From: Mobula birostris
Lineage: Eukaryota
Direction of reading: 5' to 3'
Assembly: GCF_030028105.1 (NCBI RefSeq)
Contig: NW_027278579.1
Span: 1-64,000, forward strand
Length of the DNA: 64,000 nt
Part shown: piece after piece, positions 24,495-61,811 of the stretch
Position numbering within the stretch: the first letter of the stretch is position 1
How the letters are laid out: each line of letters starts with the position of its first letter
Notes under the pieces: model-generated
The model's database searches: none
Told to the model about the DNA's origin: nothing
The model's input: the letters and a program-made list of their open reading frames with translations, nothing else
Position numbers and translations under genes: made by a program

Positions 24495-25780
24495 GAAGAT
24501 GACAAATGTCACTCCGCTCTTTAAGAAGGGAGGAAGACGAAAGAAAGGAAATTATCGGCCAGTTAGCCTAACCTGAGTGGTTGGGAAAGTGTTAGTCCAT
24601 TACTGAGGACGAGGTTTCAGGGTAATTGGAGGATGATAATAAAATACTCAAAATCACCATGGTTTCTGTAAAAAGAAATCTTGCCTGACAAATCTGTTAG
24701 AGTTCTTCAAGGAAGCAACACGCAGGGTGGACAAAGGAGAGGTGGTAGATGTCATTTACTGGGATTTTCCGAAGGCGTTTGATAAGGTGCTACACATGAG
24801 GCTGCTGAACAAGATAAAATCCTATGGCGATACAGGAAAGACACTGGCATGGATAGCAGAATGGCTGACAGGCAGGAGGCAGCGAGTGGGAATAAAGGGG
24901 ACCTTTTCAGGTTGGCTGCTAGTGACTAGTGATGTTCCTCAGGAGTCAGTATTGAAACAGCTACTTCTCACGTTGTTTGTCAGTGATTTAGATAATGGAG
25001 TTGATGATTTTCGGGCAAAGTTTGTGGATGATATGAAGATAGGTGGAGGGGTAGGTAGTGCTGAGGAAGCAATGTGATTGCAGCAGGACTCAGACATATT
25101 GGAAGAATGGGCAAAAAAGTGGCAAATGGAATACAGTGTTGGGAGATGATAATGCATTTTGGTAAAAGGGACAACAGTGCAGACCAGTATCTAAATGGGG
25201 AGAAGGTTCAAACATCAGAGGTGCAGAGGAACTCAGGGGTCCTCATGCAAGACCCCCAGAGGGTTAATTCACAGGTTGAGTCTGCGGTAAAGAATGCAAA
25301 TGCAATATTGGCATTTATTTCAATGGGAAGGGAATATAAAAGCAAGGAAATAATGCAACATGCACAACACGCTGGAGGAACTCAGCAGGTCGGGCAGCAT
25401 TTTTGGAAAAGAACAGTCAACGTTTTCGGCCGAGACCCTTCGTCAGGGTGGATGAGGAGAGGATGTTTCCTCCGGTGGGGGTATCCAGAACTAGAGGGCA
25501 CAGCCTCAAAGTTGAGGGGCCTTTTAGAACAGAGGTAAAGAGGAATTATTTGAGCCAGAGAGTCGTGAATCTGTGGAGTGCTCCGCCACAGACTGCGGTG
25601 GAGGCCAGGTCCCTGTGTATACTTAGGGCGGAAGTTGATAGTTTCCTGATCGGTCAGGGCATCAAAGGATATGGAGAGATATGGGGTTGAGTGGGATCCG
25701 GGATTGGCCATACTGGAATGATGGAGCAGACTCGATGGGCTGAATGGCCTAATGCTTCTCCGATGTCTTCTGGTCTAAGG
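24495..25780 (+). mobile_element. CR1/HER1-like LINE RT (decayed), interrupted by a Penelope fragment at ~25355-25450
   Basis: NVTPLFKKG..NYRPVSLT, HGFCKKKSCLTNLLEFF, DVIYWDFPKAFDKV, KFVDDMKIG. Confidence 0.88.
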
Positions 25781-26029: not shown

Positions 26030-26420
26030 GGGTTCGTCGGCGCTGGTTGGCCGCTGATCCCGTCAATCTACCTCTGTACCCGGTCTCTGACGGAACCGTG
26101 TGACGTGTCCCTGTCACTCACGGAGCCCCGCCCCCCCAGTCACCCGGGGAACAGCCGCTGGGACAGAAACCACGCGCCCCCTCTGACGTCAGCCACGCGC
26201 TGCCCGGTACGTGCGGCGACGCTTCAACGGACGAGCTGAGTCAACCGTTCAATGCTTGATCGTCGGCCGGCCGCGAGCTCTCACCGAGCCCCTGTTGGTG
26301 AAGATGGACGTCAATCAAACAGCTGTGACAAATGAGAGAGCGAGGCCGGGCTGCGAGTGGGCGGGGACTCCGCCGGGGATCGCAGCGCGCATGCTCGGCC
26401 GGCTGAAAGTGCAGGAGGGG
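26030..26420. promoter_or_regulatory. CpG island / candidate promoter (CRE TGACGTCA at 26184-26191, GC box, NRF1-like GCGCGCATGC)
   Basis: CpG-dense segment with clustered motifs. Confidence 0.5.
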
Positions 26421-29400
26421 CAGTGGAGGGACGAGGAGAGTTTGAGGGATGCGGAGGTTTTCAGGGAGTGAGAGAGTTTGAGGGAGAATTGGAGGGACAG
26501 GAAGGTTGGAAGGAGAGAGTTTGAGGGAGAGGTAGAGTTTGAGGAGGCAGGTTTTGAGGGGGAGGTAGAGTTTGAAGGAAAAGGAGGTTTTGAGTGGGTG
26601 AGAGTTTGAAGGGAGAGAAGATTTCAGGAGAGAGTGAGTGTGGGAGTGGAAGTTTTGATGGAATGAGAGATTTTGAGGGATGGGGCAGTTTTTGAGCAGT
26701 GGCAATTTGAGGGACCAGGAGGGTTTGGGGGACGAGGAGGGCTTGGGGGAGTGAGAAATTGTGGGATGAGGAGGGTTTGGGGGAGTGAGAGAGTTTGAGT
26801 TAGGGTAGGTTTTGAGGGAGAGGTAGAGTTTGAGGGACAAAAAAGTTTTGAGTGGGTGAGAGTTTGAAGGGCGAGAAGATTTCAGGAGAGAGAGAGTGTG
26901 GGAGTGGAAGTTTTGATGCAATGAGAGATTTTGAGGGATGGGGCAGTTTTTGGGCAGTGCAAATTTGAGGGACGAGGAGGGTTTGGGGGAGTGAGAGTTT
27001 GAGGGACAAGGAGGGTTTGGGGCAGTGAGAGTTTGGGGGACGAGGAGGGTTTGGGGGAGTGAGAAATTGAGGGACGAGGAGGGTTTGGGGGAGTGAGAAA
27101 TTGAGGGACGAGGAGGGTTTGGTGGAGTGAGAAATTGAGGGACGAGGAGAGTTTGGGGGAGTGAGAAATTGGACAAGGAGGGTTGGGGGAGTGAGAAATT
27201 GAGGGACGAGGAGGGTTTGGGGGAGTGAGTGATGGACAGAGAGCTTTTGGAGGAGTGCAAGACTGAAGAATGGGGAGGCTTTGACAGAGTTTAAGGGACA
27301 GGGAGGTTTTGGGGAGTGAGAGAGTTTGAGGGATGAGGTGGTTTTGGGGTAGTGTGAGAGTTTGAGGGACAGGGAGGTTTGAAGGAGTGAGTGTAGGTTT
27401 TGAGGTTGTGGCAGAGTGAAGGCAAGGAGGTTTTGAGTGGGTGAGAGTTTGAAGGGCAAGAAGATTTCAGGGGAGTGAGAGCGGAAGTTTTGAGGGAGAG
27501 AGCTTTTGAGGAATGGGGATATTTGGAGGGAGTGTGAGTCTTTGAGGGATGGGGAGGTTTTGGGAGAGTGAGAGAGTTTGAGGAAGCAGATATTGTGGCA
27601 GAGTGAGAGAGTTTGAGGGAGAATTGGAGGGACAGGGAGGTTGGAAGGAGTGAGTTTGAGGGAGGGCAGGTTTTGAGGGAGAGGTAGAGTTTGAGGAGGC
27701 AGGTTTTGAGGGGGAGGTAGAGTTTGAAGTAAAAGGAGGTTTTGAGTGGGTGAGAGTTTGAAGGGTGAGAAGATTTCAGGAGAGAGTGAGTGTGGGAGTG
27801 GAAGTTTTGATGGAATGAGAGATTTTGAGGGATGGGGCAGTTTTTGAGCAGTGGCAATTTGAGGGACCAGGAGGGTTTGGGGGACGAGGAGGGCTTGGGG
27901 GAGTGAGAAATTGTGGGATGAGGAGGGTTTGGGGGAGTGAGAGAGTTTGAGTTAGGGTAGGTTTTGAGGGAGAGGTAGAGTTTGAGGGACAAAAAAGTTT
28001 TGAGTGGGTGAGAGTTTGAAGGGCGAGAAGATTTCAGGAGAGAGAGAGTGTGGGAGTGGAAGTTTTGATGCAATGAGAGATTTTGAGGGATGGGGCAGTT
28101 TTTGGGCAGTGCAAATTTGAGGGACGAGGAGGGTTTGGGGGAGTGAGAGTTTGAGGGACAAGGAGGGTTTGGGGCAGTGAGAGTTTGGGGGACGAGGAGG
28201 GTTTGGGGGAGTGAGAAATTGGACAAGGAGGGTTGGGGGAGTGAGAAATTGAGGGACGAGGAGGGTTTGGGGGAGTGAGTGATGGACAGAGAGCTTTTGG
28301 AGGAGTGCAAGACTGAAGAATGGGGAGGCTTTGACAGAGTTTAAGGGACAAGGAGGTTTTGGGGAGTGAGAGAGTTTGAGGGATGAGGTGGTTTTGGGGT
28401 AGTGTGAGAGTTTGAGGGACAGGGAGGTTTGAAGGAGTGAGTGTAGGTTTTGAGGTTGTGGCAGAGTGAAGGCAAGGAGGTTTTGAGTGGGTGAGAGTTT
28501 GAAGGGCAAGAAGATTTCAGGGGAGTGAGAGCAGAAGTTTTGAGGGAGAGAGCTTTTGAGGAATGGGGATATTTGGAGGGAGTGTGAGTCTTTGAGGGAT
28601 GGGGAGGTTTTGGGAGAGTGAGAGAGTTTGAGGAAGCAGATATTGTGGCAGAGTGAGAGAGTTTGAGGGAGAATTGGAGGGACAGGGAGGTTGGAAGGAG
28701 TGAGTTTGAGGGAGGGCAGGTTTTGAGGGAGAGGTAGAGTTTGAGGAGGCAGGTTTTGAGGGGGAGGTAGAGTTTGAAGTAAAAGGAGGTTTTGAGTGGG
28801 TGAGAGTTTGAAGGGTGAGAAGATTTCAGGAGAGAGTGAGTGTGGGAGTGGAAGTTTTGATGGAATGAGAGATTTTGAGGGATGGGGCAGTTTTTGAGCA
28901 GTGGCAATTTGAGGGACCAGGAGGGTTTGGGGGACGAGGAGGGCTTGGGGGAGTGAGAAATTGTGGGATGAGGAGGGTTTGGGGGAGTGAGAGAGTTTGA
29001 GTTAGGGTAGGTTTTGAGGGAGAGGTAGAGTTTGAGGGACAAAAAAGTTTTGAGTGGGTGAGAGTTTGAAGGGCGAGAAGATTTCAGGAGAGAGAGAGTG
29101 TGGGAGTGGAAGTTTTGATGCAATGAGAGATTTTGAGGGATGGGGCAGTTTTTGGGCAGTGCAAATTTGAGGGACGAGGAGGGTTTGGGGGAGTGAGAGT
29201 TTGAGGGACAAGGAGGGTTTGGGGCAGTGAGAGTTTGGGGGACGAGGAGGGTTTGGGGGAGTGAGAAATTGAGGGACGAGGAGGGTTTGGGGGAGTGAGA
29301 AATTGAGGGACGAGGAGGGTTTGGTGGAGTGAGAAATTGAGGGACGAGGAGAGTTTGGGGGAGTGAGAAATTGGACAAGGAGGGTTGGGGGAGTGAGAAA

Positions 29401-30870
29401 TTGAGGGACGAGGAGGGTTTGGGGGAGTGAGTGATGGACAGAGAGCTTTTGGAGGAGTGCAAGACTGAAGAATGGGGAGGCTTTGACAGAGTTTAAGGGA
29501 CAGGGAGGTTTTGGGGAGTGAGAGAGTTTGAGGGATGAGGTGGTTTTGGGGTAGTGTGAGAGTTTGAGGGACAGGGAGGTTTGAAGGAGTGAGTGTAGGT
29601 TTTGAGGTTGTGGCAGAGTGAAGGCAAGGAGGTTTTGAGTGGGTGAGAGTTTGAAGGGCAAGAAGATTTCAGGGGAGTGAGAGTGGAAGTTTTGAGGGAG
29701 AGAGCTTTTGAGGAATGGGGATATTTGGAGGGAGTGTGAGTCTTTGAGGGATGGGGAGGTTTTGGGAGAGTGAGAGAGTTTGAGGGAAGCAGATATTGTG
29801 GCAGAGTGAGAGAGTTTGAGGGAGAATTGGAGGGACAGGGAGGTTGGAAGGAGTGAGAGTTTGAGGGAGGGCAGGTTTTGAGGGAAAGGTAGAGTTTGAG
29901 GAGGCAGGTTTTGAGGGGGAGGTAGAGTTTGAAGGAAAAGGAGGTTTTGAGTGGGTGAGAGTTTGAAGGGTGAGAAGATTTCAGGAGAGAGTGAGTGTGG
30001 GAGCGGAAGTTTTGATGGAATGAGAGATTTTGAGGGATGGGGCAGTTTTTGGGCAGTGTGAATTTGAGAGACGAGGAGTGTTTGGGGGAGTGAGAAGTTG
30101 AAGGACAAGGAGGGTTTGGGGGAGTGAGTGTTTGAGGGACAGGAAGCTTTTGGAGGAGTGCGAGACTGAGGAATGGGAGGTTTTGGCAGAGTTTAAAGGA
30201 CAGGGAGGTTTTTGGTAGTTTGAGGGACGGGAGGTTTGAAGGAGTGAGAGGGTTTGAGTGAGGGCAGGTTTTAAGGTTGCGGGAGAGTGAGGGGCAAGGA
30301 GGGGCAGTTTTTGGACAGTGTGAATTTGAGGGACAAAGAGGGTTTGGGGCAGTGAGAGTTTGGGGGATGAGGAGGGTTTGGGGGAGTGAGTAATGGACAG
30401 AGAGCTTTTGGAGGAGTGTGAGACTTTAAAGAATGGGGAGGTTTTGACAGAATTTGGGGGACAGAGGTTTTGGGAAGTGAGAAAGTTTGAGGGATGAGGC
30501 GGTTTTGGGGTAGTGTGAGAGTTTGAGGGACGGAGGTTTGAAGGAGTGAGTGTAGGTTTTGAGGTTGCGGCAGAGTGAGGGGTAAGGAGGTTTTGAGTGG
30601 GTGAGAGTTTGAGGGATGGGGAGGTTTTTGGGTAGTTTGAGGGACGGGAGGTTTGAAGGAGTGAGAGAGGTTGAGTGAGGGCAGGTTTTGAGGTTGCGGC
30701 AGAGTGAGAGGCAAGGAGGTTTTGAGTGGGTGAGAGTTTGAAGGGCAAGAGAATTTCAGGGGGGTGAGAGAGCGGAAGTTTTGAGGGAGAGATTTTGAGG
30801 AATGGGGATATTTGGAGGGAGTGTGAGTCTTTGAGGGATAGGGAGGTTTTCAGGGAGTGAGAGAGTTTGA
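26420..30870. repeat. G/A-rich complex satellite with ~1.05-1.15 kb higher-order period built from ~34-bp subunits; resumes at 31793-32030
   Basis: Identical minus-strand ORF starts at 27260, 28310 and 29462; subunit gagggacgaggagggtttgggggagtgagaaatt. Confidence 0.92.
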
Positions 30871-31792
30871 TGTGTGAGGGGACCCTGAAGTATCCCTATT
30901 ATCTGTGCTTTTGAAAAGAGAGAGAGTTACTTAACAGCTCGTTTGTAAAAGAGAGAGAGATGCAGAGTAACTTTAAGGCACTGGAAGTAACTTCTGGCTT
31001 TCCACTGAGTTTGAAGTTGGAGACAGCACCGAGCAGCTCGTCAGTTGCTGTGGTGACTGAAGGCAGGTTGTAGATATTTACTTCAAGGACAGTCTGCCTG
31101 CTTGTGCATTTCTTACACAGACAGAGGGAGGGGGGATTATTTGAATGACAGGTGGTACCCAGTACGGTGAGATAAATAGGAGGTCAGATGATACAGACCT
31201 CAGACACATGATCTGGACACTGAATGAGCATTGCTGTGCTCGTAGCAAAAGCAGGTTTTGGAGGATCAATCAGGCGGATCGATCCAATCGCTCTTGCAGT
31301 GAAAAGGAAAGGGGTTGACTGGTGGGGAGTTGTCCATGTGTCCACCCTCGCCTGGGGGACAGCTCCACCACAGAAAACTGGTCCCCCTGGTTAAACTCAC
31401 AGTTGGTGACTTGTGAAGGAGTTCGAAGGACAACGAGCAGATCGAATGCGTCAGCTCACCTGAAGACTCAAATCTCTGCCTCCCTCTCTCTCCCTCTCCA
31501 TCACTACTCAACTCAATACCACAAACTGAACTGAACTTTACTCATCAACGTAAGACTGTATCTTTTTATCCCTAGATGTAAAGAAGCTTGGTTTTTCACA
31601 CATATATATTTCCACACTTGCTGATATACTTACTTACATATATAAAATCATTGCTAACCTGTTTGATTTGTATACATTCATATTACTGTATTGCGTAGTT
31701 ACTAATAAATGTTAATAGTTTATAGTAATACTGGACTCCAAAGTGTTTTCCATCTCTGCTGGTTCTTTATTCCCGTCAAGGGGTACGTGACA
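30871..31792 (+). mobile_element. Solo LTR-like insertion inside the satellite
   Basis: Non-satellite block beginning TG and ending ...ggggtacgtgaCA, with aataaa near 31704; satellite resumes after it. Confidence 0.55.
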
Positions 31793-34382: not shown

Positions 34383-34793
34383 ATGTCTTTCAGACAGCAA
34401 GCACAGAGTTTAGCCGAGGAGGCGGTTTGTCCCGTCTGCCTTGATTTCTTCACCAATCCAGTAGCACTGGACTGTGGACACAGCTTCTGTCTCTCCTGTA
34501 TCACACAGTGTTGGGAAAAGGAGGGGAGAAACTGCTGTCCGGAATGTAGAGAGGAGTTTGCTGACAGATCCCTCAGGGTCAATTGGGCCCTGGCAAGTCT
34601 GGCTGAGAAGGCTCAAAAACTAAACCTGAATCAGAAAGAGACGGAGATGAGATCTCAGTGTGAGAGACATCAGGAGGAACTGAAGCTGTTTTGTGACACG
34701 GACAAGCAGCTGATCTGTCTGATTTGTAGAGACGCGAGAGAACACAAGTCTCACAACTTCATGCCCATTGCAGAAGCTGTTGAGATTTACAAG
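34383..34793 (+). CDS. TRIM exon: C3HC4 RING plus B-box 2 (TRIM39/A33/NF7-like)
   Basis: [29 protein letters not shown]; [32 protein letters not shown]; |gtgaat donor. Confidence 0.95.
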
Positions 34794-37700
34794 GTGAATA
34801 CAAACAGATTTTGATCACCTGGAAATTTACAGTACTGTATTATTTTACTGACATTTTGTTCTTGAACCCAATCCCAGTGTCAAGTTAAATCATCCTTGGA
34901 ATCTCTGCTGGAGAAGAAATCTGCCAACCAGGAAGTGGAACAACGACAGAAAGAGAAGATTTCTGGAGTGAGGGTGAGATCTGCTTCCAGTTTAATGGGT
35001 CTGTGTGGTTTATCGAGGCACCCAATTCACGCTGAGCACCAACTCCGCCCCCCCCCCCCAGTTCAACACATGGATGAACAACACAGGCTACCACAGCGTA
35101 CTTCCGTTCTTTGCCCTGTACCTACCATCCACACCTCCACACATCACCTGCTATCCTCCCAATCTTCACCCCGCAGCCCCCACCTTCCACCAACTGTTCA
35201 GTCATCATGGACTCTCCTTCACTACTGAGCAGGTGAGAAGGGCTCTGGGAACTCAGACACGGCAACGCATTGGGACCAGGTGGTGTGAGCCCCAAGGTCC
35301 TGAAGGAGTGTGCTGAGCAGCTGTGTGGAATTCTCCAGCACATTTTCAATCTGAGTCTCAGCCTGGAAAGAGTCCTGACTGTGGAAAACATCATGTGTGG
35401 TCCCAAGTACCTAAGAAGGGCCAAGCAAAAGTCTTGAATGACTACTGTCCAGTGGCCGCGACCTCACACTTCGTGAAGGCTCTAGAGAGGCTGGTCCTGG
35501 CTCATCTCCGACTCCTGGTCAGATCAGCTCTCGATCTCTTGCAGTTTGCCTACCAGGAGCACCTTGGAGTCAACAAATGCTGTCATCTACCTGCTGAACA
35601 GAGCCTACTCCCTTTTGGATATGCAGGACAGCACCGTGAGATCATGTTTTTTGATTTTTCGAGGGCCTTCAATAGCATACAGCCCTCGTTGCTGGGGAAA
35701 AACTCCATTCAATGCAGGTTGGCACTTCCATTGTATCCAGGAGAATGGGCTACCTGACTGCAAGATCACAGATTGTTTGGCTTCAGAGCTGTGTGTCAGA
35801 CGTGGCCATAAGCAACACAGGGGCCCCACAGGGCACTGTAATGGCTCCCTTCCTGTTTACCCTGTCTACCCTGGACTTTACATACAACACTGAGTCATGT
35901 CATCTGCAGAAATTCTCTGATGACTCAGCAACAGTTGGGTGTATAAAGGGAGGATGGGAGGGTGGTGGATGAATACAGGGTCCTGGTGGAGGACTTTGTC
36001 AGGTGGTGCGGGCTGAATCATCTGCAGCTCAGCATCAGTTGGACAAAGGAGATGGTGATGGACTTTAGGAAGACTAATCCTGCACCGCTCCCTGTTACTA
36101 GTGATGGTGAGGAAATGAATGTGGGGAGGACCTACAAGGACGCAAGGGTTCACCTGGATGACAGACTTGAGTGAAGTACCAACACAAAGGCTGTGTATAA
36201 GAAGGGTCAGAGTTGCCTCTACCTCCTGAGGAGACTGAGGTCCTTTGGAGTGTGCAGGCCTCTCCTTCACATGTTCCACCAGTCTGTTGTCGCTGGTACA
36301 ATCTTCTATGCGGTGGTGTGCTGGGGCAATGGGTCAACACGGGTGCTGCCAACAGGCTCAATACACTGATTAGAGAGTCTGGCTCGGTTACTGAAGTCAA
36401 ACTGGACAGAACGGAGGCTGTGTGAAATCCCTGGCGGCTCTGGACAATGTTTCTCACCCTCTGGATGAACAGAGGAGCACTTTTAATAATAGACTGAGAC
36501 AACTGTGCTGCTCCAAAGAGCGCTATGCGACGTCATTCTTACCCCCGGCTATTAAGCTCTATAATGAGTCAACGTATAGCTAGAGGAGTGATGACCCCCT
36601 CCTGTTAGACTGTTTGAGATAATTCTTTTTTATTCTTTATTTCTCTTCTAATATTTGTATATCTGTGCTCTGGTGACACTGTAATTTCCTTTGGTATCAA
36701 TAAAGTATCTGTCTATCCATTTATCTGTCAATCTATATAGTCCTCGTTATTACAGGGTAATATCAACCATCATGTTTCATTTGACAGGAACAGTCACACA
36801 CTATGCAGGCCAACATCACATCTGAATTTGCTAAAATACACCAGGTTCTGGCTGAGAGAGAGCAGCGCTTACTGAGCGATCTCAGGGCAGAGGAGGAGAA
36901 GATTCTGAACGCCATGGAGAAAAATCTTCAGGAGATCGAAGAGAATTTAGCCTCCGTTGAGGAGAAACTCTCCAAGTTACAGGAACAGATGAATGAGGAA
37001 GACAGTGTGATGTTTCTGAAGGTGAGGGATTGTTGTTCAGTGAAAGCCCACAGTCTGTTCTGGAGCAGACCTGCTCTTGTCACCAGCTAATAGATCAAGG
37101 GTCTGTCTGGTCTTCCCCGGGATTGAGTTGCTGGGACCTGCATGCTGAGTTATTGATTACTTTGTGCAGCCGAAATGTAATATTCCCCTGAACCTCGCGT
37201 TACAATCCATTCGCCATCCCTCGCAGTGAGAACGTGGATGTTCAGTCCCAGTCAATTCAGATCTGTGTTTTATTTATTACAGGAGGAATTGTGTCAGGAC
37301 AGGAGGTAGGACAGACCCTTTACTGAAACTCTGCACCGTTTGGTAAATAATAATAAAAATAAATAATAGTTCCAGTGACTTTATAACCCACTGTTTGATT
37401 TTACAGGATTAGTGAGGAAACTCAGACATTGTCTGTAACAGAAGGTGTCATAACCATTGGAAAATTCAGGGACACAATATTGAGAGGAATGTTTGATGCC
37501 ATGAAGCAAGGTAGAGTTTGTATCAATTTCTGTGTTCTGGTTTATTGTAAAAGTGAAAACTGAAGTGGTAATTGTTAAAGCGATCCTGTAGGTAGTGGTA
37601 CTTGTGTGTATGACGATCAACTGGAGTGTGACTCAGACCCTATCTGATCTGATGAAGAATTCCACTAACCTGTGTTTATTTTAGACAAGCAACAACAACT

Positions 37701-40700
37701 CTGTGCTCCCCCCTCTTCCCTCCGTCACCCCTTCCACCCTCTCCCCTCTTCCCCCTCTCCCCTCTCAATAGATATGTTTAAAATCATTGAACTGTATAGA
37801 ATATACATCCTCAAATTCTTTCTCTTCGCAAACATCCACGAAAACAGAGAAATGCCCCAAAGAATGAATGATAGTTAAATGTTAGAACCCCCCCAACTCC
37901 CCCCAACGCATAAGCAGCAGAAAAGCAACGAACCCCTCTCCCCCGCCAGTAAAAAAGCATTGGCACCCCCTCCCCACTGAGCATTCAAGTATGCAGCAAA
38001 GTATCAATAAATTCGCAGACTTGCAGTACCCCAAAGTCTACTCATTCACCCTGTATTCGACATACCACAGGCTCTCTCTCTCACTAATAAGGGAAAAAGA
38101 GGTGTCCCCATTTCACAGCGTGAGGAGAAACTTAACAAAACAACTGGCTGATTCATGGTGGTAAAAATATATCGCATTGTTTTTTCTGAGCTCTGTGTCC
38201 AAAGGACTCGGGTCTCTGGGCACACAGCCAGCAGCCAGCTCACTGCTTACGACCTTCTGTCTCCGACGATGCATCAGGGCGGCAGCACCAGCCTTTGATC
38301 AGACTGTCTCCGGAGTCATGAAAATCTGGCACCCTGAAGGCGTGCTGGTCTTCCAGCCCGCGTCCTTAGCACATCGAGAAGTGGCTGGTCGTGCGGCTCA
38401 GAGAGCGAGTCCTATTTCCACGAACAACCGGAACTGTAACTCCAGGTGTCCTTCGCCCTCCCCCCTCCCCACACTCTCCCCTCGCCCTCACCCTCCCTTC
38501 CCTCTTGCCCTCTCCATCTCCTCCCCTCCCCATGCCCTCTCCTCCCCCTCGCGCTCTCTCTCCTTCTCCTCCCCCTCGCGCTCTCTCTCCTTCTCCCCCT
38601 CATGCTCTCCCTCTCCCTCTCCTCCCCCCTCTGTCACACTCTCCCTCCTTAGATGTTGTCTGACCTGGTGAGGCTTTCCAGCACCCTGTATCCTGGGAGA
38701 ACCCTATCCACATCCCCACACCTCAGGTGCCCCCTCCCCACAACCTCCCTCCAATCCTCAGGATCCGTCTAATTCTGTGCTTCTCCCTCCAGTCTGTGAG
38801 TCCCTGGATGTAGAATCGGCCAGTCCATGCCTCAAAGAGTCTGAGGATCTGAATCGTGTGAGAGGGACTGAGACCCAGATGAGTCTCCCTGACACAGGGG
38901 ACAGGTTAAGACCATAAGACATTGGATTATCAGTTTGTTTTCTGTTCTGGGATTGAAGGGATTCACATCAGGAAGACATCACTGGGAAGTGAAGGTGGTG
39001 GGGAATCTGGGCTGGAGGGTGGGAGTATCCACAGAACCTGCACCCTCTCTGTAGCATGGTACGGTGTCACGAGAGTTAGTGTTACTGCCTCTCAGCTCCG
39101 CAGACCAGAATTCAATAACGGCCTCTGTTGTCTGTGTGGAGTTTGCATGCTCCCCCTGTGACTGTGTGGGTTTCCCTGGGTGATCCAGTTTTCTCCCTCG
39201 TTCCAGGGACCTGCAGGTTGAGGGGGTAATTGGTGGCTGTCAGTTCCCATTGGTGTGTAGGTCAGTGGTAAAAAGAATGGGAGTGTGAGAGAGAATAAGT
39301 GTCAGGGGTACAGGGAAGTGGGGAGAGGGGATATTGGTCTGGTGGGATTGCTCCCCTGAGAGTAGATGTAAAGACCCAGATGGGAGTGTGAGACAGAAAA
39401 CGTTACAGAGAGAGAAATTACTTCAGGGCCACTTTGATAACGGTGTTGTTCACCCTGTGTTTAGTGAGGAGTGCAATGAACCTGGAGACGGGGGAATGAA
39501 ACTGTTGTCTGAGGCTCTGAGGAACCCGGAGTGTAAAATACAGAAACTGGGGTAAGTACAGTCTGTTGATCTTTGTGTGGGTAAAGTTCCATTTCCTGAT
39601 AAACCCCTGTATCACTGTTCAAACCATTGATGGTTACCTGTGGAGATTTACATTGAATCTGTTTGTTTCTCTCTTCTGTTTCCTCTCGGTTCATCAGGTT
39701 GACAGCTGATAGTTCCACATCTGATTTTGAGCACTTCATCTCCACTCTCAGCACAAACCACTCACTGAGAGAGGTGGAGCTAGACCTGAGTTACAATGAA
39801 CTGGGAGATTCAGGAGTGAAACTGTTGTCTGAGGCTCTGAGAAAGCTGAAGTGTAAAATACAGAGACTGATGTAAGTACCAGACTGTGGGGGAATGGGGA
39901 AGATCATCACTCCATCGATCTCCAATTGTTGATGCTGCTGCAGAGCCCCAATAACAAGCTCTCACCTCGGGTTCCATCTGGTCCACTCACTTCCACCTGT
40001 TTACAGTGCAGCTTGTTCACCTCAGGTCACTGTGTGTGTCTGAGGTGGAATCAGCTCTTGAAACACACTGCAGAGTCTATCTCTCTGAGATTAGAGTGGG
40101 GCTGTCTTTACCCATTCCCTGTGGGGACTCAGACACAACAGGAAATTACTGAGCAGTTGGGCACCATCAGTCCCATGGAGGAAGGTGTGACAGAACATGG
40201 ACCCAGACCACAAAGTGTTCAGGGTCAGATTGTGTGTCGAACATTTCTCACTGATGGATTTAAACTTGTTTCAGTGATTCGGTAGCTTTACTTTCCCAAC
40301 CTTTGACCTGGAGCTGGTTTAATATTATCGCTGAACTGTAAACCATTGCAAACCTCAGCTCTCAGTGTGGGGTTTGGAGAATATTCTTGCTGAGATGAAA
40401 CCAGTTTTCAGTGTGGGTGTTTCCCCGAGGCAGCATTGTGTTGGTGTGGTGACCAGGTTGGGATGTACAGTTAACGTAGATGGTGAGTGGAGTCCACCGA
40501 GTTTGGTTCTGTTGGCACAGAATGTCTGGACAGGCGGAGAGGGACTTGTGTCGTCACAGGATGATCTCTGGGATGAATGTGAGGACAACGAGGATATGCC
40601 GGGTTTTTCTGTGGAGACAGGACAAGGGGAGGGAAAGCTGGGGGTGTGGAAGGTTACACTGCCTCACTGTGATTCAATACAGAACACAAGGTCCAGAGTG

Positions 40701-43700
40701 GTGGTGTACTGTGGAGTGGGGCTGGGATGTAGAGGGTGAACACAAATATACAATGTCCCCTGGGTTCTGCCATTTGTTCTGGGGAGATTTGAGTGTTTCC
40801 AGTTCGGAAGGTGCGGTGATGTTTATACTGACTAGTGTCTGATGCTGGACATTGGTGTTATCAGTAATTGTGGGGTTAATAAACACTGAGCATTACTGTG
40901 GGTATTGGTGAAAGTGAGTTTAATAAACCCTGGGATTTAACTTCTCGCTTCTCTCTCTGATCCACAGTCTAGATTCTGTCAATATCACTGCTGCTGGTGT
41001 TGTGGATCTCGCCTCTGCTCTCAGTACAAACCGCTCACTGACAGTGCTAGACCTGGCTTATAATGAACTGGGAGATTCAGGGATGAAACTGGTGTTTGAG
41101 GCCCTGAGGAACCAGGAGTGTAAAATACAGAAACTTGAGTAAGTACCAGACTGAGAGACATTGGGACAGGCCATTTATCTCCACAGCCCGAACAACAGGC
41201 TCTCAGCTCACACTCCATCAGGTCCACTCACAAGTTCAGTGTTAAAGTTTATTGTTCTGGGCAAATCTAACCAGGGTGTAAAAGTTATGAAAATCAGCTT
41301 TTTGTAGCAACAGTACAGATCATTGTAAACATATCAGATATTAATTACACAAGCATAAATTAACATTAATTATACATAAATTACACAATAAAGAAAAAGA
41401 ATTTTAGCGATGTGAGTGAATCTAGTCTGAGATGGAATTAGGGTCTTTCAGATCAGTTCAAGAGAAATGATGGGAGTGGAAGAAGTTGTTGTTGAATCTT
41501 GGAATGTGGGTCTTCAGTCTCCTGTACTTCCTGTCTGATGCCAGCATCGAGAAGAGCGAATTGCCCAGATGGTGTGGGTTCTTGATGATGCATATCACCA
41601 TTTGAGACCTAGAGACAGGGAACAATACAGCACAGGAACAGGTTACTCAGCCCTCAGTGTAGCGCCGAACCAGGTAAAAAGCATATCAAAATCCCCCAAA
41701 GACTAATCCCTCCTTCTTACAAAATGTCCATATCCCTCCATCATCCTGACTTCCATGTGCCTATCCCAACGTTACTCAAAAGCCTCTAATTGTAAACGTC
41801 CATGAGGGTGGGGCAAATGTACCCGAGATACAACCTCTTGTGTTCCTGGGCATTGAAGTTTCACTCCAGGCTGTGAAGCAACTGGTCAGAGTGCTTTTCT
41901 ATGTACATCTGTGGAGGTTTGTCACAGTTTGTGATGACATACCAATCTCCTTAATCTTCAAAGAGAGGGTAGCATGTGTTCTTCATGATTGCCTCTATGT
42001 TCTGGGCCCGTGAGAGACATTGTCACCCAGGAATTTCCTGCTGCTCCCCCTTTCCACCACTGAACCTTCAGGGAGGACTGGTGTTAGTCTGCCTGACCTC
42101 CCCTTCCTAACGTCCACAGTCAGTCCTTAATCTTGTAGATGTTCACTGTGAGGTTGTTCTGATAACACCCCTCAACCAACTGAGCTATCTCACTCTTGTA
42201 CACCACTCCATTAGCATGTGTGAATCTGCCAACAACAGTTTTGTCATTGGTGAATCTGCAGACAGCTTCGGTGCTGTGCTCAGGTACAGAGCTGGTGGTG
42301 TAGAGAGAATAGAGCAGGGGATGAAGCACACAGTGCTCAGGTTTGCCGGTGTTGATGGGGAGTGAGGAGGATGAGGAAGTCAAGGATCCAGTGTGAGGGA
42401 CAGAGGCCCACGAATTGGTGATAGAAGAACAGGCTGACTTATATTTCCAGTTGTCTGGATCATCCAGAACAGGGACGAGAAGGTATCTGCTGTGGACCAG
42501 TTGGGGTGACAGGTAAGTTGAAGGAGGTCAGTTCCTCACCGAATCAGGAGTTGATTTAAAACTTCTCTGAAGGTCGGTGTGTTTTCATCGCAGCCTTTCT
42601 CCTCAGGTCACAGTGTGTGTCTGATACGGAATTGGCTCTTCTGACAGACTACGAGGGCTGTGTGTGTGTAAGGAGAGTGGGGGTGCCTTTATCCTTCTGA
42701 GAGAAACGGAGTCAATAGGACACTGTGATCTGCACTGCAAGGCTGAATATGTTGCAGACAGGAGAGCGTGATCTGTGGTAGACAGAGTATTCACAAATGA
42801 ACAATGTTTCCCACGTTTCTGCTGTTGGTTCCAATGTGAACTGAGTGTTTCTGGGGATCATGGTGTGGTAATGTCTGATGCTGGACATTGGTGTTATCAG
42901 TAATTGTGTTAACAAACACTGATCATTACTGAAAGTGGGATTAAATTACTCATCTCTGTCTGATCCACAGTCTGGAGTCTGTCGGTCTCACAGCTGCTGG
43001 TGTTGTGGATCTCACCTCCGTTCTCAGCACAAACCGCTCATTGACTGAGTTGGACCTGCGTGATAATAAACTGGGAGATTCAGGAGTGAAACTGGTATCT
43101 GAAGCTCTGAGAAACCCAAAGTGTAAATTACAGAAACTGTGGTAAGTACCAGACTCTGATGCATTGGGACAGATCATCATTCCATCAAAGTCCCCAGCCC
43201 GAATAACAGGCCCTCACCTCAGGCTCCATCGGATCCACTCACAAGTTCAGTGTTAAAGTTTATTGTCCAAGGTGTAAATGTTATGAAAGTTACTTTTTGC
43301 AGAAACAGTACAGAACATCACAAACATGTCAGACATCAATTACACAAATTTAAATTAACATTAATTTTACATAAATTACACAATAAAGAAAAACAAACAA
43401 AACCACATTTTGCAGGTTCAGAGAATCCAGTCTGGGATGGAACTAGGGACTTTCAGATCAGTTCAAGAATATGAGGCAGTGGGAAGAAGCTATTGTTGAA
43501 CCTTGGTACGTGGGTCTTCAGGCTCCTGTCCCTCCTGTCTGAGGGACTGGCCCAGATGTTGTGGGTTTCTGATGATACAACCAGTCAGAATGCTTTCCAG
43601 TGTCCATCTGTGGAACTTGCAATACTCTGTGATGACATGCCACTCATTTTCTAAGACATTGGCTCACTTCCTTCACGTTTGACTCTATGTTCTGGGCCCA

Positions 43701-46700
43701 GGAGAGATTCTCTGAGATGTTGTCACCCAGGAACTTGCTGCTGCTCACCCCTCGCTGAGGACTGGTGCTCGTTGGGGGGATAGGTGAATTGAAGGGGGTC
43801 CAGATCCTTCACCAATGCCTTTGAACGAAAAATAGGACGAAAGTTAATGGATTCAGTCCAGTACATCACAGATCAAGCCCTCAACTATTGAGTACATCTA
43901 TGTGAATTGCTGTCATAAGAAAGCAGCATCCATCATCAAAGATCCTCACTGCCCAGGCCGAGCTCTTTTCTCACTGCTGCCATCAGGTAGAAGGTACAAG
44001 AGCCTCAGGCCATGCACTACCAGGTTCAAGAACAGTTACTACCCCACAAACATCAGGCTCTTGAACAAAAAAGATTAACTACACTCATCTATTGAGATGT
44101 TCCCACAACCAATGATCTTCTTTTAAGGAATCTTTATCTTGTTATTTCATTCTCTCATTATCTATTGCTATTTATTTATAGTTGCATTTGAAAAGTTTGT
44201 TGTCTTCTATGCTCTATTTGATATTTCATTGATGCTGTTATAATTACCATTCAATAGATTAGCTGAGTATGCCTGCAGGAAAAAGAATTTCAAGGTTGAG
44301 AATTACAGCAGGACATTGATAGGATGCAAAATTGGGCTGAGAAGTGGCAGGTGAAGTTCAACCCAGATAAGTGTGTGGTCGTTTATTTTGGTAGGTCAGA
44401 TATGATGACAGAATATACCATTAGTGGCAAGACTCTTGGCAGTGTGGAGGATCAGAGGGATCTTGGGGTCTGAGTCCATAGGACACTCAAAATTCCTACG
44501 CAGGTTGACTCAGTGATTGAGAAGGTGAACGGTGCATTGGACTTCATCAATTGTGGGATTGAGTTTAAGAGCCAAGAGGTAATGTTGCAGGTATACAGGA
44601 TCCTGGTCAGACCCCACTGGGAGTACTGTGCTCAGTTCTGGTCGCCTCACTACAGGAAGGATGTGGAGGCCATAGAAAGGGTGCAGAGGAGATTTACCAG
44701 GATGTTGTCTGGATTCAGGATCATGCCTTCTGAGAATAGGTTGTGTGAACTCAGCCTTTCCTCCTTGGAACGACGGAGGATGAGAGGTGACCTGATAGAG
44801 GTGTGTAAGATGATGAGAGGCATTGATCGTGTGGATAGTCAGAGGCTTTTTCCCAGGGCTGAAATGGCTAACACGAGAGGGCATATTTTTAAGGCGCTTG
44901 GAAGTAGGTACAGAGGAGATGTCAGGGGTAAATTTTTTTACGCAGAGAGTGGTGAATGCGTGGAATGGGCTGCCGGCAGTGGTGGTGGAGGTGGAAACGA
45001 TAGGGTCTTTTAAGAGACCCCTGGATAGGTACATGGAGCTTAGAAAAATAGAGGGCTGTGGGTAATCCTAGGTAGTTCTAAGGTAGGGACATGTTCGGCA
45101 CAGCTTTGTGGGCTGAAGGGCGTGTATTGTGCTGTAGGTTTTCTATGTTTCTATGTTGTATGTGGTGACGTGTATGTACTCTGATAATAAAATTTACTTC
45201 GTACTTTGATTTGAGACCTGAAAAGCCCAGAGTGTTTTCAATGGAGCCTGTTCACCTCAGGCCAGATTGTCTGAGGCCTGGGCTTGAGGTGGAAACTACA
45301 CTGGCCGTGTGTGTTGGGAGAGTGGGTCTCCCTTCACCCACATTCCCTGTGGTGACGTGGAGACAATCGGACACTGTGATCTGTCCTATTCTCTCCATGT
45401 GACCACAGGGAATGTGGGAAAAGGGAGCCCCACTCTCCCGACACACACACGGCCAGTGTAGTTTGCACCTCAAGCCCATGCCTCAGACAAGTGGAGTGTG
45501 ATCTGTGATATACGGTGTACCTGCAAGAGTGCAATGTTCCCCAGGTTTCTGCTGTTTGTTCCTGTGTGAACTGAGTGTTTCCAGAGTTCAAGGTACAGTG
45601 ATGTTTATATTCACTGGTGTCAGATGCTGGATGTTGTTGTGGGGTTAGTAAACACTGAGCAATTCCCTGGGATTAAATTTCTCATCTCTCTCTGATCCAC
45701 AGTCTGGTGTCTATCGGTCTCACAGCTGCCGGTGTTGTGGATCTTGCGTCTGCTCTCAGTACAAACTGCTCACTGATGGACCTGGACCTGGGCGATAATG
45801 AACTGGGAGATTCGGGAGTGAAACTGTTGTCTGAGGCTCTGAGGAACCCGGAGTGTAAAATACAAAAACTGGTGTAAGTCCCAGACTGTGAGATGGTGTT
45901 TCTGGGCATTAACACTGTACACTGGGGCAGGTTTTCCATCAGGGCAACAGCAGTTCCGTCTCACTGTCCCGTGATCCTTTACACACGTCCAACAGCCTTA
46001 CTCTGTGTCTGGCTCACACTGACAGAACCTTCATCTGTTCTATAGACTGTGATGCCAATGGGCCCTGTGTCACCACAGTGAGGTGAACGTGGGTATCCAA
46101 AAGGGCAGTGTTCACTTCCTCAGACTCCCCAGTTCACAGGCTGGAAACCTGTGGCAGGGTAAAGCTGGCACAAGTCTGGTGATTCCTGTGGGATCTGTGG
46201 GCAGTGGCAGTGACTGGGGGAACAGTCAGTGACCCCTTTCACTGGAGTTCGTGCAGCCCTGTGGATCTCAATGTTTTCAGCTGTGAGGGTGGGAATGTAT
46301 TTTATTGTTCCCAGATCATGTCATTCCCAAGTTCTACTGAGTGTTTGAGAGACTGACATTCATAACAATTTAATTTCCCTGATAGTACGGTCTCACCTGC
46401 TGAGGAAACCCTTCTGTCAGTTCAGCCAGACACAGAGGATCAGACTGTTACCATAGCTGAACATCCAGGAGTGTCCTAGTGGAAAGTTGTGGAGGGAACA
46501 GTGTGGATCCACAGCAGATGATGGGGAATTTGTGGTCAGCAGGAGATCTGTCAGTGTGATAAACAAGCTCTGGGAATCCCCTGATTCCTCTTATTTCTCT
46601 CCTTTGCAGGCTCAGTTGGACTGGACTCACAGATTCTGGCATTGAGGATCTCGTCTCTGGTCTCATCACAAAACAATCACTGAGGGAATTGGAACTGGAT

Positions 46701-47257
46701 TCAAACTACCTGACAGACCAATCTGTCTCTGTTTTCCGCCACCTTATACTGACCCACCCATGTCTCGAGCAGATTAAGTGAGTGTTTGTGGTAACGTCTA
46801 GTGTGATTAAATATCGGTGAGCCCCTTGGGTGATATTTGTCTGGGAGTGTTGTTGAAATATAAATTTCTGTCCCCTGTTACTAACATTGCTGTGTAATCT
46901 CAAACAGATGAAAATTCTGGAAAACTAAAGCAACACAAAATGCTAAAGGAACTCAGCAAGTCTGGCTGCATTGATGGATAAGAGTAAACAGTTGAAGTTT
47001 CAGGCAAGATCCTTCTTCGAGGACTCCTGATGAAAGGTCTCAGTCCAAATCATTGACAGTTAATGCTTTTCCATAGATACTGCTTGACCTGCTGAGTTCT
47101 TACAGTATTCTGTGTGCGTTGGCATTGTGTAATCTGTGTGTTTCCTCTTTATTCCTCACTCTGTTTCAGACTGTGGGGGAATCTGTTCAGTTCGGATGGA
47201 GAAAACAAGCTGAAGTCACTGGAGGGAACCAGACGAGGACTGAGAGTGATTATCTGA
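34383..47257 (+). CDS. Putative chimeric TRIM-LRR gene copy 1 (RING, B-box 2, coiled coil, PRY stub, RI/NLR-type LRRs), 13 exons, 669 aa
   Basis: Exons 34383-34793, 34878-34973, 36788-37021, 37283-37305, 37407-37510, 38793-38904, 39465-39551, 39698-39871, 40968-41138, 42971-43141, 45703-45873, 46610-46777, 47170-47257 total 2010 nt, all GT-AG, no internal stop. The join depends on a weak AG|GTTAAG donor at 38904. Confidence 0.7.
34878..37510 (+). CDS. TRIM coiled-coil/linker exons (96, 234, 23, 104 bp)
   Basis: Exon-size series typical of RBCC-B30.2 TRIMs; [23 protein letters not shown]. Confidence 0.9.
35012..36738 (+). mobile_element. Rex1-like LINE insertion in TRIM intron 2, absent from copy 2
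   Basis: [47 protein letters not shown]; the flanks are contiguous in the paralogue near 54490. Confidence 0.88.
38793..39036 (+). pseudogene. Disrupted B30.2 (PRY/SPRY) exon; only the first 112 bp are potentially retained
   Basis: [24 protein letters not shown], then in-frame TAA at 38915-38917, then [29 protein letters not shown], truncated by a SINE. Confidence 0.85.
39050..39300 (+). mobile_element. HE1/V-SINE-like SINE at the SPRY truncation point (paralogous copy ~56245-56465)
   Basis: tgtctgtgtggagtttgcatgctccccctgtgactgtgtgggtttcc core. Confidence 0.75.
39465..47257 (+). CDS. Ribonuclease-inhibitor/NLRC3-like LRR exon array (87, 174, 171, 171, 171, 168 bp plus terminal exon)
   Basis: [39 protein letters not shown] repeats, phase 2-2 exons; ends [28 protein letters not shown]. 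Confidence 0.9.
44300..45160 (+). mobile_element. CR1/HER1-like LINE 3' part (Rex1-like fragment just upstream, ~43820-44290)
   Basis: ORF 44513-45013: [42 protein letters not shown]. Confidence 0.88.
45267..45490. repeat. 224-bp fold-back inverted repeat
   Basis: Arms 45267-45373 and 45382-45490 are about 90% complementary by eye, 8-nt loop. Confidence 0.88.
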
Positions 47258-53863: not shown

Positions 53864-56800
53864 ATGGCCTCTAGACAGTACGTACAGAGTTTAGCCGAGG
53901 AGGCAGTTGGTCCCATTTGCCTTGATTTCTTCACCACTCCGGTAACACTGGACTGTGGACACAACTTCTGCCTCTCCTGTATCACCCAGTGTTGGGAAAA
54001 GGAGGGGAGAAACTGCTGTCCGGAATGTAGAGCAAAGTTCGCAGACAGATACCTCAGGGTAAACTGGGCCCTGGCAAGTCCGGCTGAGAAGGCTCAACAA
54101 TTAAACCTGAATCAGAAAGAGACGGAGATGAGATCTCAGTGTGAGAGACATCAGGAGGAACTGAAGCTGTTTTGTGACACGGACAAGCAGCTGACCTGTC
54201 TGATTTGTAGAGACACGAGAGAACACAAGTCTCACAACTTCATGCCCATTGAAGAAGCTGTTGAGATTTACAAGGTGAGTACAAGCAGTCTTTATCACCT
54301 GAATATTTATGGTGTTCTTATTTTACTGATGTTTTCTTCTTGAACCCAATCCCAGTGTCAAGTAAAATCATCGTTCAAATCTCTGACAGAGAAGAAATCT
54401 GCCATCAAGAAGTTAGAACAGCGACAGAAACAGGAGATTTCTGGAGTGAGGGTGAGATCTGCTTCCAGTTTTCCGGGTCTGTGTGGTTTAATTCTCTTTA
54501 TTGCAGGGTAATATCAACCATCACGTTTCATTTGACAGGAACAGTCACACACTGTGCAGGCCAACATCACATCTGAATTTGCTAAAATACACCAGGTTCT
54601 GGCTGAGAGAGAGCAGCGCTTACTGAGCGATCTCAGGGCAGAGGAGGAGAAGATTCTGAACGCCATGGAGAAAAATCTTCAGGAGATTGAAGAGAATTTA
54701 GCCTCCGTTGAGGAGAAACTCTCCAAGTTACAGGAACAGATGAATGAGGAAGACAGTGTGATGTTTCTGAAGGTGAGGGATTGTTGTTCAGTGAAAGCCC
54801 ACAGTCTGTTCTGGAGCAGACCTGCTCTTGTCACCACACTAATAGATCAAGGGTCTGTCTGGTCTTCCCCGGGATTGAGCTGCTGGGACCTGCATGCTGA
54901 GTTATTGATTACTTTGTGCAGCCGAAATGTAATATTCCCCTGAACCTCGCGTTACAATCCATTCGCCATCCCTCGCAGTGAGAACGTGGATGTTCAGTCC
55001 CAGTCAATTCAGATCTGTGTTTTATTTATTACAGCAGGAATTGTGTCAGGACAGGAGGTAGGACAGACCCTTTACTGAAACTCTGCACCGTTTGGTAAAT
55101 AATAATAAAAATAAATAATAGTTCCAGTGACTTTATAACCCACTGTTTGATTTTACAGGGTTAGTGAGGAAACTCAGACATTGTCTGTAACAGAAGGTGT
55201 CATAACCATTGGAAAATTCAGGGACACAATATTGAGAGGGATGTTTGATGCCATGAAGCAAGGTAGAGTTTGTATCAATTCCTGTGTTCTGGTTTATTGT
55301 AAAAGTGAAATTACATGGACTGAAGTGGTAATTGTTAAAGGGATCCTGTAGGTAGTGGTATTGTGAATATGACAATCAACTGGAGTGTGACTCTATCTCT
55401 CTGTCTCGATCTCTTTCTTTGTCTCTACCCTCAATATCACTCTGTTTCAGTGTTTCTCTATCACTCTGACTCTCTCTCTTCATCCCTGTTATCTCTATCT
55501 GTCTCTGTCTTTCGCTGTTTCTCTGTGTCTATCTATGTCTATCTCAGTCTATGTCAATTTCTCTCTCTGTCTTTATCTGTTTTTCTATATCTTCCTGTCT
55601 CTGCCTCTGCATATCTCACTATTTTCATGTCTCTGTCTAACTCTCCCCTGTATCTCTCACTCTCTCTATCACCCTCTTCTTTCTCTCAATGTCACGCTGT
55701 CAGCCCCTCTACGCAGCCTCCCACTCCCCCCATCTCAGCCCGTTTCCCCCCCATCTCCCCTCTCCCTCTCAGAGGTAGATAGAGACACAGAGGTGGGGAG
55801 AGGGGAAGAGCGAGGTGAATTGTGTGTGTGTGTGTCTCTCCCTCCCTCACACACACTCACACTGTCTCTGTCTCAGATGTTGCCTGAACTGCTGAAGATT
55901 TCCAGCTCCTTTTGTTTTGGGACAGCTCTGTCCCTGTCCTCACACCCACCTCCCTCCTCCCCACAATCCTCAGGATCCCTCTAATTCTCTGCTTCTCCCC
56001 CCAGTCTATGAGACCCTGTGCATTGAGGTGTCTGAGGATCCGAGTCGTGTGAGAGGGACCGGGACCCAGATGAGTTTCTCCGACTCCGAGAACAGGTTAA
56101 GACTATAAGACATTGGTTTATCAGTTTGTTTTCTGTTCTGGGATCAAAGGGATTCACATCAGGAAGACATCACTGGTAAGTGAAGGTGGTGGGGAATCTG
56201 GGCTGGAGGGTGGGAGTATCCACAGAACCTGCAGCCTCTCTGTAGCATGGTACGGTGTCACGAGAGTTAGTGCTGCTGCCACTCAGCTCCACAGACCAGA
56301 ATTCAATAACGGCCTTTGGTGTCTCTGTGGAGTTTGCACGCTCCCCCCTGTGACTCTGTGAGTTTCCCCGGGTGATCCAGTTTTCTCCCTCATTCCAGAG
56401 ACCTGCAGGTCGAGCAGGTAATTGGAGGCTGTCAGTTCCCACTGGTGTGTAGGTCAGTGGTAAAAGGACCCAGATGGGAGTGTGAGAGAGAATAAGTGAC
56501 AGGGAAGTGGGGAGCTACAGCGGTGATGTGATCGAGACAGGATCCATTTACTCATCTAGTTATGAGCTATAAATCCCTGGTGAGAGGGAATAAACCAGCA
56601 GGAACAGAAATGGGAGAGGATGAAGTGTAAATTAATTGAAATTACAGTTGTCAGTACAATAATTTTACCAGCTTCTAAATTAATGTGTTCTCTTTAATAA
56701 ATACTGATGTTGGAGATGTAAATGTTGAAGCATTCTGGTTCTCCATGGGTTCAGCAGCAGCTGGGAACAGGGAACCCTGAGCTCCAGGATCCCCCGTCTC

Positions 56801-61218: not shown

Positions 61219-61283
<65 letters not shown>

Positions 61284-61548: not shown

Positions 61549-61811
61549 AAAGAAGTCCCCTCTAAAGTTGGTTCTCTGGGCACAGAATGTCTGGTCAGAC
61601 AGAGAGGGAGTTGCACTGTCGTGTGACAACCCATCCAGAGGATGAGCTCTGGGACTAACATGAGGAATACAGGGATCTGCTGGGGTTTGCTGTGGAGTCA
61701 GGACAAGGGGAGGGGAAGCTGGGAGTGTGAAAGCTTACACTGCCTCCCTGTGATTCAGTACAGAGAACAAGGTCCAGAGTGGGGAGGACCTTAGCTGCTG
61801 TCAGGGCTTAT

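Follow-up and report, generated by a model that had tools for sequence, protein, structure and literature searches.

A remnant of a TRIM PRY/SPRY exon probably bridges RING-B-box-coiled-coil exons and NLR-type leucine-rich repeat exons in a family of ray genes

In the TRIM family, the RING, B-box and coiled-coil (RBCC) region works as a dimeric E3 ubiquitin ligase, with the choice of target left to the C-terminal domain, according to the available text of one source (PMC3137616). Replacement of the C-terminal B30.2 domain is described in the available portions of two papers for TRIMCyp of owl monkey and macaques and for zebrafish ftr52 and ftr06; in macaques the fusion transcript results from an altered splice site, and ftr52 gained a multi-exon C-terminus (PMC2703620, PMC3137616). 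Here we describe a related arrangement in a 64,000-nucleotide stretch of the genome of the ray Mobula birostris (RefSeq assembly GCF_030028105.1, contig NW_027278579.1, positions 1 to 64,000 of the forward strand), which is called the window below and to which all coordinates refer. The window contains two tandem copies of a gene in which TRIM exons are followed by leucine-rich repeat (LRR) exons. Like TRIMCyp, ftr52 and ftr06, the ray fusion keeps the RBCC front and carries an unrelated domain in place of PRY/SPRY. Unlike these, its new domain is an NLR-type LRR solenoid, and part of PRY is kept as a frame bridge by means of an internal latent splice donor. In addition, ftr52 carries a premature stop, whereas the ray fusion has been retained in two orders and has multiplied into paralogues.

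The reading that we consider probable is that the retained piece, here called the PRY stub, represents the initial 112 nt of a PRY/SPRY exon from a TRIM gene, whose own latent donor at an Arg-Phe codon pair joins the RBCC exons in frame to ray NLR LRR exons, as seen in protein models from five species. The join likely arose once by DNA rearrangement, a short CR1-like insert next to the donor likely only strengthened it, and the encoded protein likely works as a dimeric ubiquitin ligase with LRRs that select the target. The 13 exons of copy 1, all with GT-AG ends, give an open frame of 669 residues that encodes RING, B-box, coiled coil, stub and LRRs. Residues 1-669 of the M. birostris RefSeq model P0230, which also uses the copy-2 donor, are 100% identical to this frame. 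The copy-1 exons are as follows.

34383 to 34793, plus strand: exon 1, RING and B-box, 100% identical to P0230 residues 1-137
34878 to 34973, plus strand: exon 2, coiled coil, 96 nt
36788 to 37021, plus strand: exon 3, coiled coil, 234 nt; its GT..AG joint to exon 4 was found in 4 of 4 runs
37283 to 37305, plus strand: exon 4, 23 nt, phase 0 to 2
37407 to 37510, plus strand: exon 5, 104 nt, ending in phase 1
38793 to 38904, plus strand: PRY stub exon of 112 nt, leading from phase 1 to 2 and predicted to be a disordered linker
39465 to 39551, plus strand: LRR exon L1, 87 nt or 29 codons, counterpart of the first post-NACHT LRR unit in ray NLRs
39698 to 39871, plus strand: LRR exon L2, 174 nt
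40968 to 41138, plus strand: LRR exon L3, 171 nt
42971 to 43141, plus strand: LRR exon L4, 171 nt
45703 to 45873, plus strand: LRR exon L5, 171 nt
46610 to 46777, plus strand: LRR exon L6, 168 nt
47170 to 47257, plus strand: terminal LRR exon L7, coding portion up to the stop

An earlier, sequence-only reading of the window had proposed that the stub serves as a phase adapter, and the exon phases agree with this. Exon 5 ends in phase 1, and L1 and all later LRR exons are phase-2 exons; a computed direct join of exon 5 to L1 shifts the frame and meets a stop 11 codons into L1. With the 112-nt stub, which leads from phase 1 to phase 2 and ends at CAG/GTTAAG (the slash marks the exon-intron border), the joined frame stays open for the full length. 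The copy-2 stub is 91 nt long due to a single 21-nt gap corresponding to 38807-38827 of copy 1, and it keeps the same donor. A single deletion is in frame one time in three by chance and is by itself weak evidence for frame conservation. Among 16 distinct stub-to-L1 sequences, 13 share one length and the others differ by −1, −2 or +1 residue; in a group of Hypanus paralogues the junction is 2 residues shorter. The in-frame stubs of 91 and 112 nt and the near-constant stub-to-L1 lengths in the models thus support the proposed conservation of the stub frame in both copies. Between the copies, the proportions of nonsynonymous (pN) and synonymous (pS) differences in the stub were 0.19 and 0.25 over 29 codons, compared to 0.055 and 0.151 for exon 1. 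Between orthologous types the stub is as conserved as its neighbours, with 30-36 of 37 residues shared in Myliobatiformes and no fast decay. From what is known of the family, the stub would act as a flexible linker selected for frame rather than sequence.

The origin of the donor was deduced from a comparison with intact PRY domains and with repeats in the window. The elements concerned are the following.

38902 to 38907, plus strand: host-derived donor core CAG/GTT, consisting of the PRY Arg codon and the first two bases of the Phe codon
38908 to 38927, minus strand: antisense CR1-like tail insert, 20 nt, edges uncertain by about 4 nt, supplying the donor from +4 onward and a TAA at 38915-38917 (plus strand)
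56099 to 56118, minus strand: CR1-like tail insert of copy 2, with a GGTT direct repeat on both sides, a possible target-site duplication
24643 to 25777, plus strand: CR1-like element with a reverse transcriptase remnant (RVT_1, E=1e-4, below the curated cut-off), outside the gene and used as reference only

When 38908-38927 (56099-56118 in copy 2) is left out, the PRY/SPRY frame returns: Arg-Phe falls precisely on the donor, and the GFTSG motif comes next. Arg-Phe directly follows the stub end in 85 of the 87 intact PRY domains matched among 120 proteins. Since AG/GTT consists of AGG, the Arg codon, and the first two bases (TT) of the Phe codon, the donor core from −3 to +3 is host sequence. 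The insert aligns at 16 of 18 positions with the 3' end of the reverse transcriptase-bearing element (25759-25776, minus strand), and its pattern occurs 3 times within the window compared to 0.01 expected by chance, in agreement with the resemblance to an antisense CR1 tail noted before; the name CR1 is our assumption for this element. The flanking repeat is GGTT in copy 2 and GGAT in copy 1, and the GGA would also be compatible with the LINE (long interspersed element) end. Of the previous claim that both donor and stop lie inside the insert, the part on the stop holds, whereas the donor is inserted only from +4 onward.

That a retroelement created the donor and thereby enabled the fusion, as originally suggested, now appears very improbable. 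The insert starts 3 nt into the intron and matches a CR1-like 3' end, and the possible GGTT target duplication in copy 2 overlaps the donor. However, the AG/GTT is collinear with the Arg-Phe pair of intact PRY domains, a target-site duplication is by definition host sequence, and GT is not in register in the matching LINE end. The insert therefore did not create the donor, and it may at most have strengthened a latent host site.

The pairing of the donor with U1 RNA was predicted using RNAduplex, which gives a crude donor score. The energy was −7.2 kcal/mol with the insert and −5.6 kcal/mol without it, a gain of 1.6 kcal/mol that is obtained in a bulged register. The donor had been called weak; this is only partly so, as −7.2 kcal/mol lies inside the range of −6.4 to −11.7 kcal/mol found for 12 other scored donors of the gene. 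It is also the sole in-frame, stop-free GT with appreciable U1 pairing (−7.2 vs −3.1 and −2.5 kcal/mol). In the predicted duplex CAG/GTTAAG pairs with one bulged U at +2/+3. The same register is described for human donors in the available part of one study (PMC4856993); in the ray gene the insert would allow it, with the register bases coming from a retroelement tail. A literature search gave nothing usable that was specific to GUUAAG donors.

The modest gain leaves room for the insert being a neutral passenger, i.e. the host Arg-Phe donor was already sufficient at the time of the fusion, and the CR1-like fragment was inserted afterwards with no effect on splicing. We find this somewhat improbable, even though the donor core is host sequence, Pristis models (XP_051865749-57 in this genus) use the same junction position, the shorter junction of the Hypanus paralogues indicates that other in-frame solutions exist, and the predicted gain is small and needs a bulge of a type that is rare in human, with 68 predicted donors according to the accessible text of PMC4856993. 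The insert-free site would score below all 12 other donors, and the insert was retained in three stub lineages, namely copy 1, copy 2 and the type represented by the Hypanus model P0250. As a separate observation, the TRIM model P0380 from the skate Rhinoraja longicauda also exits the PRY exon close to this motif and terminates within a few residues, which suggests that latent donors arise readily near the end of PRY.

Use of the donor was examined with contigs from sequencing runs. Four of the eight candidate runs were aligned to the window at 85% likeness, at which unrelated NLR contigs crowd the table of joints; the results refer to 15 of 79 joints and 32 of 3838 pieces listed. The joint of exons 3 and 4 was present in all four runs. 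For a branch at the stub donor and the L1 acceptor, the unspliced arm of intron 6 is predicted to start at 38875 and to end at 39492 with 31-letter words, which we take to be the word size used for the contigs. Run X3 has one contig covering 38875-39492 and another ending at 38904, a contig of X6 starts at 38875, and one of X5 starts at 38878 with 3 additional unaligned letters. Contig breaks at the donor are therefore seen in 3 of the 4 probable RNA runs. The same calculation predicts the edges observed at 36993, 37434 and 37481 at canonical sites, whereas merging of paralogues would put the contig start near 38901 instead of 38875. Spliced L1-L2-L3 pieces were found in X3, X5 and X6. Taken together, the contigs suggest use of the donor in some runs and frequent retention of introns 5 and 6; they do not give transcript levels.

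Several points weigh against the bridging role that we favor. None of the runs is on record as RNA and their RNA status was guessed. The spliced joint 38904-39465 was absent among the 15 joints listed. In X1 a contig runs unbroken from 38633 to 39526, spanning the stub acceptor, the stub, its donor and the L1 acceptor, and neither X1 nor X3 shows a contig break at 38820, the expected site for the exon 5-stub join. The RefSeq models are predictions that are mutually non-independent, and frameshifted stubs are invisible in protein databases. P0230 passes from the last copy-1 exon (47170-47257) into the copy-2 stub (56005) without a GT donor, an implausible join that is probably an annotation artefact, and the copy-2 model P0038 stops at 248 residues through skipping of exon 4. 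The comparison of donors, finally, relies on the crude U1 score.

Some of these points would fit a locus in M. birostris that mainly yields unspliced or RBCC-only RNA, with the long fusion being minor or an annotation carry-over and the LRR exons a decaying NLR tail. Besides the unbroken contig and the lack of a break at the exon 5-stub merge point, this explanation can draw on Hypanus P0250, which ends just past the donor, and on the loss of one RING cysteine, the 7-residue deletion and the 248-residue model of copy 2. It is nevertheless unlikely, because each of the 13 exons of copy 1 has an open frame and GT-AG ends, L3-L7 are 88-97% identical to their counterparts in Mobula hypostoma and dasyatids, spliced LRR pieces occur in three runs, and both orders have retained the architecture, with numerous paralogues and isoform models. 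A shorter product next to the fusion protein is compatible with the bridging reading: incomplete splicing of introns 5 and 6 would give an RBCC-only form as well. The sequence-only reading had raised a possible 330-residue RBCC-only isoform, and this agrees with donor read-through to the inserted TAA at 38915-38917, with the intron-holding contigs and with P0250. Short RBCC-only relatives amounted to 2 proteins among 4 candidates, of which only P0250 was informative. Intron 5 of copy 1 also has a pyrimidine tract and an AG at 37771 (37745-37780) in a stretch present in copy 1 only. The candidate cryptic acceptor at 37772 would give an RBCC-only product of 324 residues by computation; none of the joints listed supports it. 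One run has deep contigs from 37776 onward.

The domain composition was examined by Pfam scans. The RING finger scored above the cut-off on P0230 (zf-C3HC4_4) and the B-box was found with E=1e-8 (zf-B_box). A coiled coil follows, with a TRIM_CC match below the curated cut-off and a continuous helix at 145-266 in the structure model of P0034. No PRY/SPRY match was obtained in the three fusion proteins scanned, whereas it was present in the control P0056. NACHT, winged helix and HD2 gave no Pfam match in fusion proteins, and the nucleotide switch is therefore missing. Exons L1-L7 are NLRP-type phase-2 exons. The first LRR unit after the NACHT region is 29 residues long in 74 of 75 ray and shark NLR proteins, equal to L1, the first residues of which lack the LRR pattern. 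The model of P0034, which is 95% identical, shows a long helix, a pLDDT (predicted local distance difference test) of 23-37 across the stub blocks, and a confident LRR solenoid that folds like NLRP3 and ribonuclease inhibitor in a structure match. The model is poor in the RING and B-box (mean pLDDT 67, predicted template modelling score 0.50) and the low confidence in the stub is suggestive only. The fusion protein is a TRIM protein that belongs neither to class IV TRIMs, for lack of PRY/SPRY, nor to the NLRs, for lack of NACHT. By analogy with the family, it likely acts as a dimeric ubiquitin ligase whose recognition domain has been exchanged, and it would ubiquitinate whatever the LRRs bind.

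The closest relatives of the two halves are found in rays and sharks. Class IV RBCC-PRY/SPRY ray TRIMs, with A33-like and TRIM39-like RefSeq names, are the source of exons 1-5 and the stub, and the fusion clade groups with batoid members; unlike these TRIMs, the fusion has a PRY truncated at Arg-Phe and a dead SPRY. Elasmobranch NLRP3-like NACHT-LRR receptors have the NLR-type LRR exons in common with the fusion, including the 87-nt first unit and the terminal exon, but they carry the NACHT, winged helix and HD2 that the fusion lacks. Among 137 new representatives, three ray-finned fish proteins of the RING- or B-box-FISNA-NACHT-LRR type also combine a TRIM-type zinc finger and LRRs in one chain, but they keep NACHT, have RING or B-box instead of the full RBCC, and have no PRY stub.

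Of 388 proteins examined, 47 had LRRs together with a TRIM part, and 44 of these contained the stub; the other three were the ray-finned fish proteins. The 44 proteins come only from Mobula birostris, M. hypostoma, Hypanus sabinus, Hemitrygon akajei and Pristis pectinata, which represent two orders, Myliobatiformes and Rhinopristiformes, and the transition from PRY to LRR has the same position in each of them. Skates, electric rays and sharks had no stub-LRR protein among the 388, although their TRIMs and NLRs were present; since top matches were listed, this is a weak negative. A B-box/coiled-coil tree of 51 rows, from which 3 of 54 intended rows with missing motifs and the 248-residue P0038 were omitted, placed the 18 fusion rows in one group (100/100) that adjoins batoid TRIMs and in which Pristis branches first. 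The shared junction and the single clade support the earlier proposal that the fusion is older than the duplication. Myliobatiformes and Rhinopristiformes separated more than 100 million years ago. The Hypanus model P0250 (251 residues) reads through the donor and ends in RLRPSDIHLSV, in the same shifted frame as RLRP-stop-DIGLSV of the window. As P0250 reads through the same insert, the insert predates the split of Mobula and Hypanus.

The part of the window downstream of the stub provides information on how the join may have arisen.

38928 to 39036, plus strand: frameshifted PRY/SPRY remnant, now part of intron 6, with 61-71% tblastn identity over 31 residues to intact ray TRIMs
39056 to 39275, plus strand: SINE-like (short interspersed element-like) repeat at the end of the TRIM homology, edges approximate, to which many divergent contigs align

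With five query proteins, TRIM homology stopped at about 39036, some 20 nt before the SINE-like repeat, and did not resume, which confirms the truncation of SPRY in both copies that had been noted before. The repeat is a putative V-SINE/HE1. Its alignment score with the tRNA-Thr of the window was not significant, being reached by 84 of 500 shuffles, an Rfam scan gave only a chance match to a long non-coding RNA (E=0.8), no second copy occurs in the window besides that of the paralogue, and a literature search for a V-SINE consensus gave nothing usable. Intron 6 is 560 nt long and has no room for NACHT. A single rearrangement likely placed the TRIM front where the N-terminal and NACHT exons of an NLR stood, with the breakpoint at or just after the SINE-like repeat; deletion or ectopic recombination could have brought about this exchange. 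The repeat may have destroyed SPRY, as proposed before, or may simply mark the site of the breakpoint.

Copy 2 has the following exons in the window.

53864 to 54274, 54356 to 54451, 54539 to 54772, 55035 to 55057 and 55159 to 55262, plus strand: exons 1-5, with the first RING cysteine replaced by glycine
56005 to 56095, plus strand: PRY stub exon, 91 nt, with the 21-nt in-frame deletion and the same donor, also used in P0230
56952 to 57038 and 57209 to 57382, plus strand: LRR exons L1 and L2; later exons lie outside the window, and P0230 continues with more LRRs

The frame of copy 2 is open through L2 (406 residues within the window). P0038 matches exons 1-3 and skips the 23-nt exon 4, of which the acceptor is a tandem CAGCAG. 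The 7-residue stub deletion is not present in the M. hypostoma counterpart. At 56173-56183 copy 2 has a strong out-of-frame donor, CTG/GTAAGT, in the dead SPRY, 3' of the stop in the insert and absent from copy 1, which may compete with the stub donor. Fusion paralogues with a damaged or deleted RING, possible decoys, comprise copy 2, P0233 of M. hypostoma, P0127 of Hypanus, and P0128 and P0134 of Hemitrygon.

Identity between the copies varies along the gene. It is 98-99% in exons 3-5, 80% in the stub and 96% in the dead SPRY. The regions 36788-37630 and 54539-55395, comprising exons 3-5 with introns 3 and 4, are 96-100% identical, whereas exon 2 and the stub are at 80-83%, and the former region is likely a gene-conversion tract, judging from these identities. 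The dead SPRY remnant (38905-39055 vs 56096-56246), which contains 6-7 G-runs, is closer between the copies than the coding stub, with 145 matches and 6 mismatches vs 73 and 18 (Fisher p=1e-4). Coiled-coil sequences group by genus, whereas stub types cut across genera. The simplest reading of these patterns would be a mosaic locus formed by gene conversion; constraint on a G-rich intron start could be an alternative. In a conversion mosaic, inserts common to both copies give no date by themselves; the dating of the insert relies on P0250.

Some further features of the window were noted. The intron after exon L2 of copy 2 contains a broken retrovirus-like element (about 58400-64000, minus strand) with integrase and RNase H remnants (Pfam). 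ARAGORN located the tRNA-Thr(TGT) gene at 22078-22151 on the minus strand, and a second tRNA-like stretch near 24.3 kb (about 24000-24400) was not called. A G-rich tandem array of about 4.7 kb with a repeat unit of roughly 1 kb occupies 26200-30900, and long C-rich arrays occur at 4300-7300 and 9100-11350.

A literature search, with most subscription journals outside its coverage, found no description of a TRIM-LRR architecture, and the whole word TRIM was not found in the available text of the whale shark genome paper (PMC8455134). In RefSeq the family sits under names such as 'ribonuclease inhibitor-like'. The TRIM-LRR proteins are an unrecognised ray-specific family and a natural, long-kept swap of the TRIM recognition domain for an NLR LRR solenoid. 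The fusion illustrates that exons of unlike phase can be joined by cutting an exon at a latent donor instead of matching intron phases, and it is a small case of transposon scrap that is predicted to alter U1 pairing. A more speculative and rather doubtful extension is that rays use these TRIM ligases with NLR LRRs as sensor-and-destroy receptors with a variable LRR number, in which the 20-nt retroelement scrap would tune the bulged donor and so set the balance of complete ligase and an RBCC-only, dominant-negative form. If the fusion protein is an active ligase, cartilaginous fish would have a new type of innate immune effector that parallels TRIMCyp.

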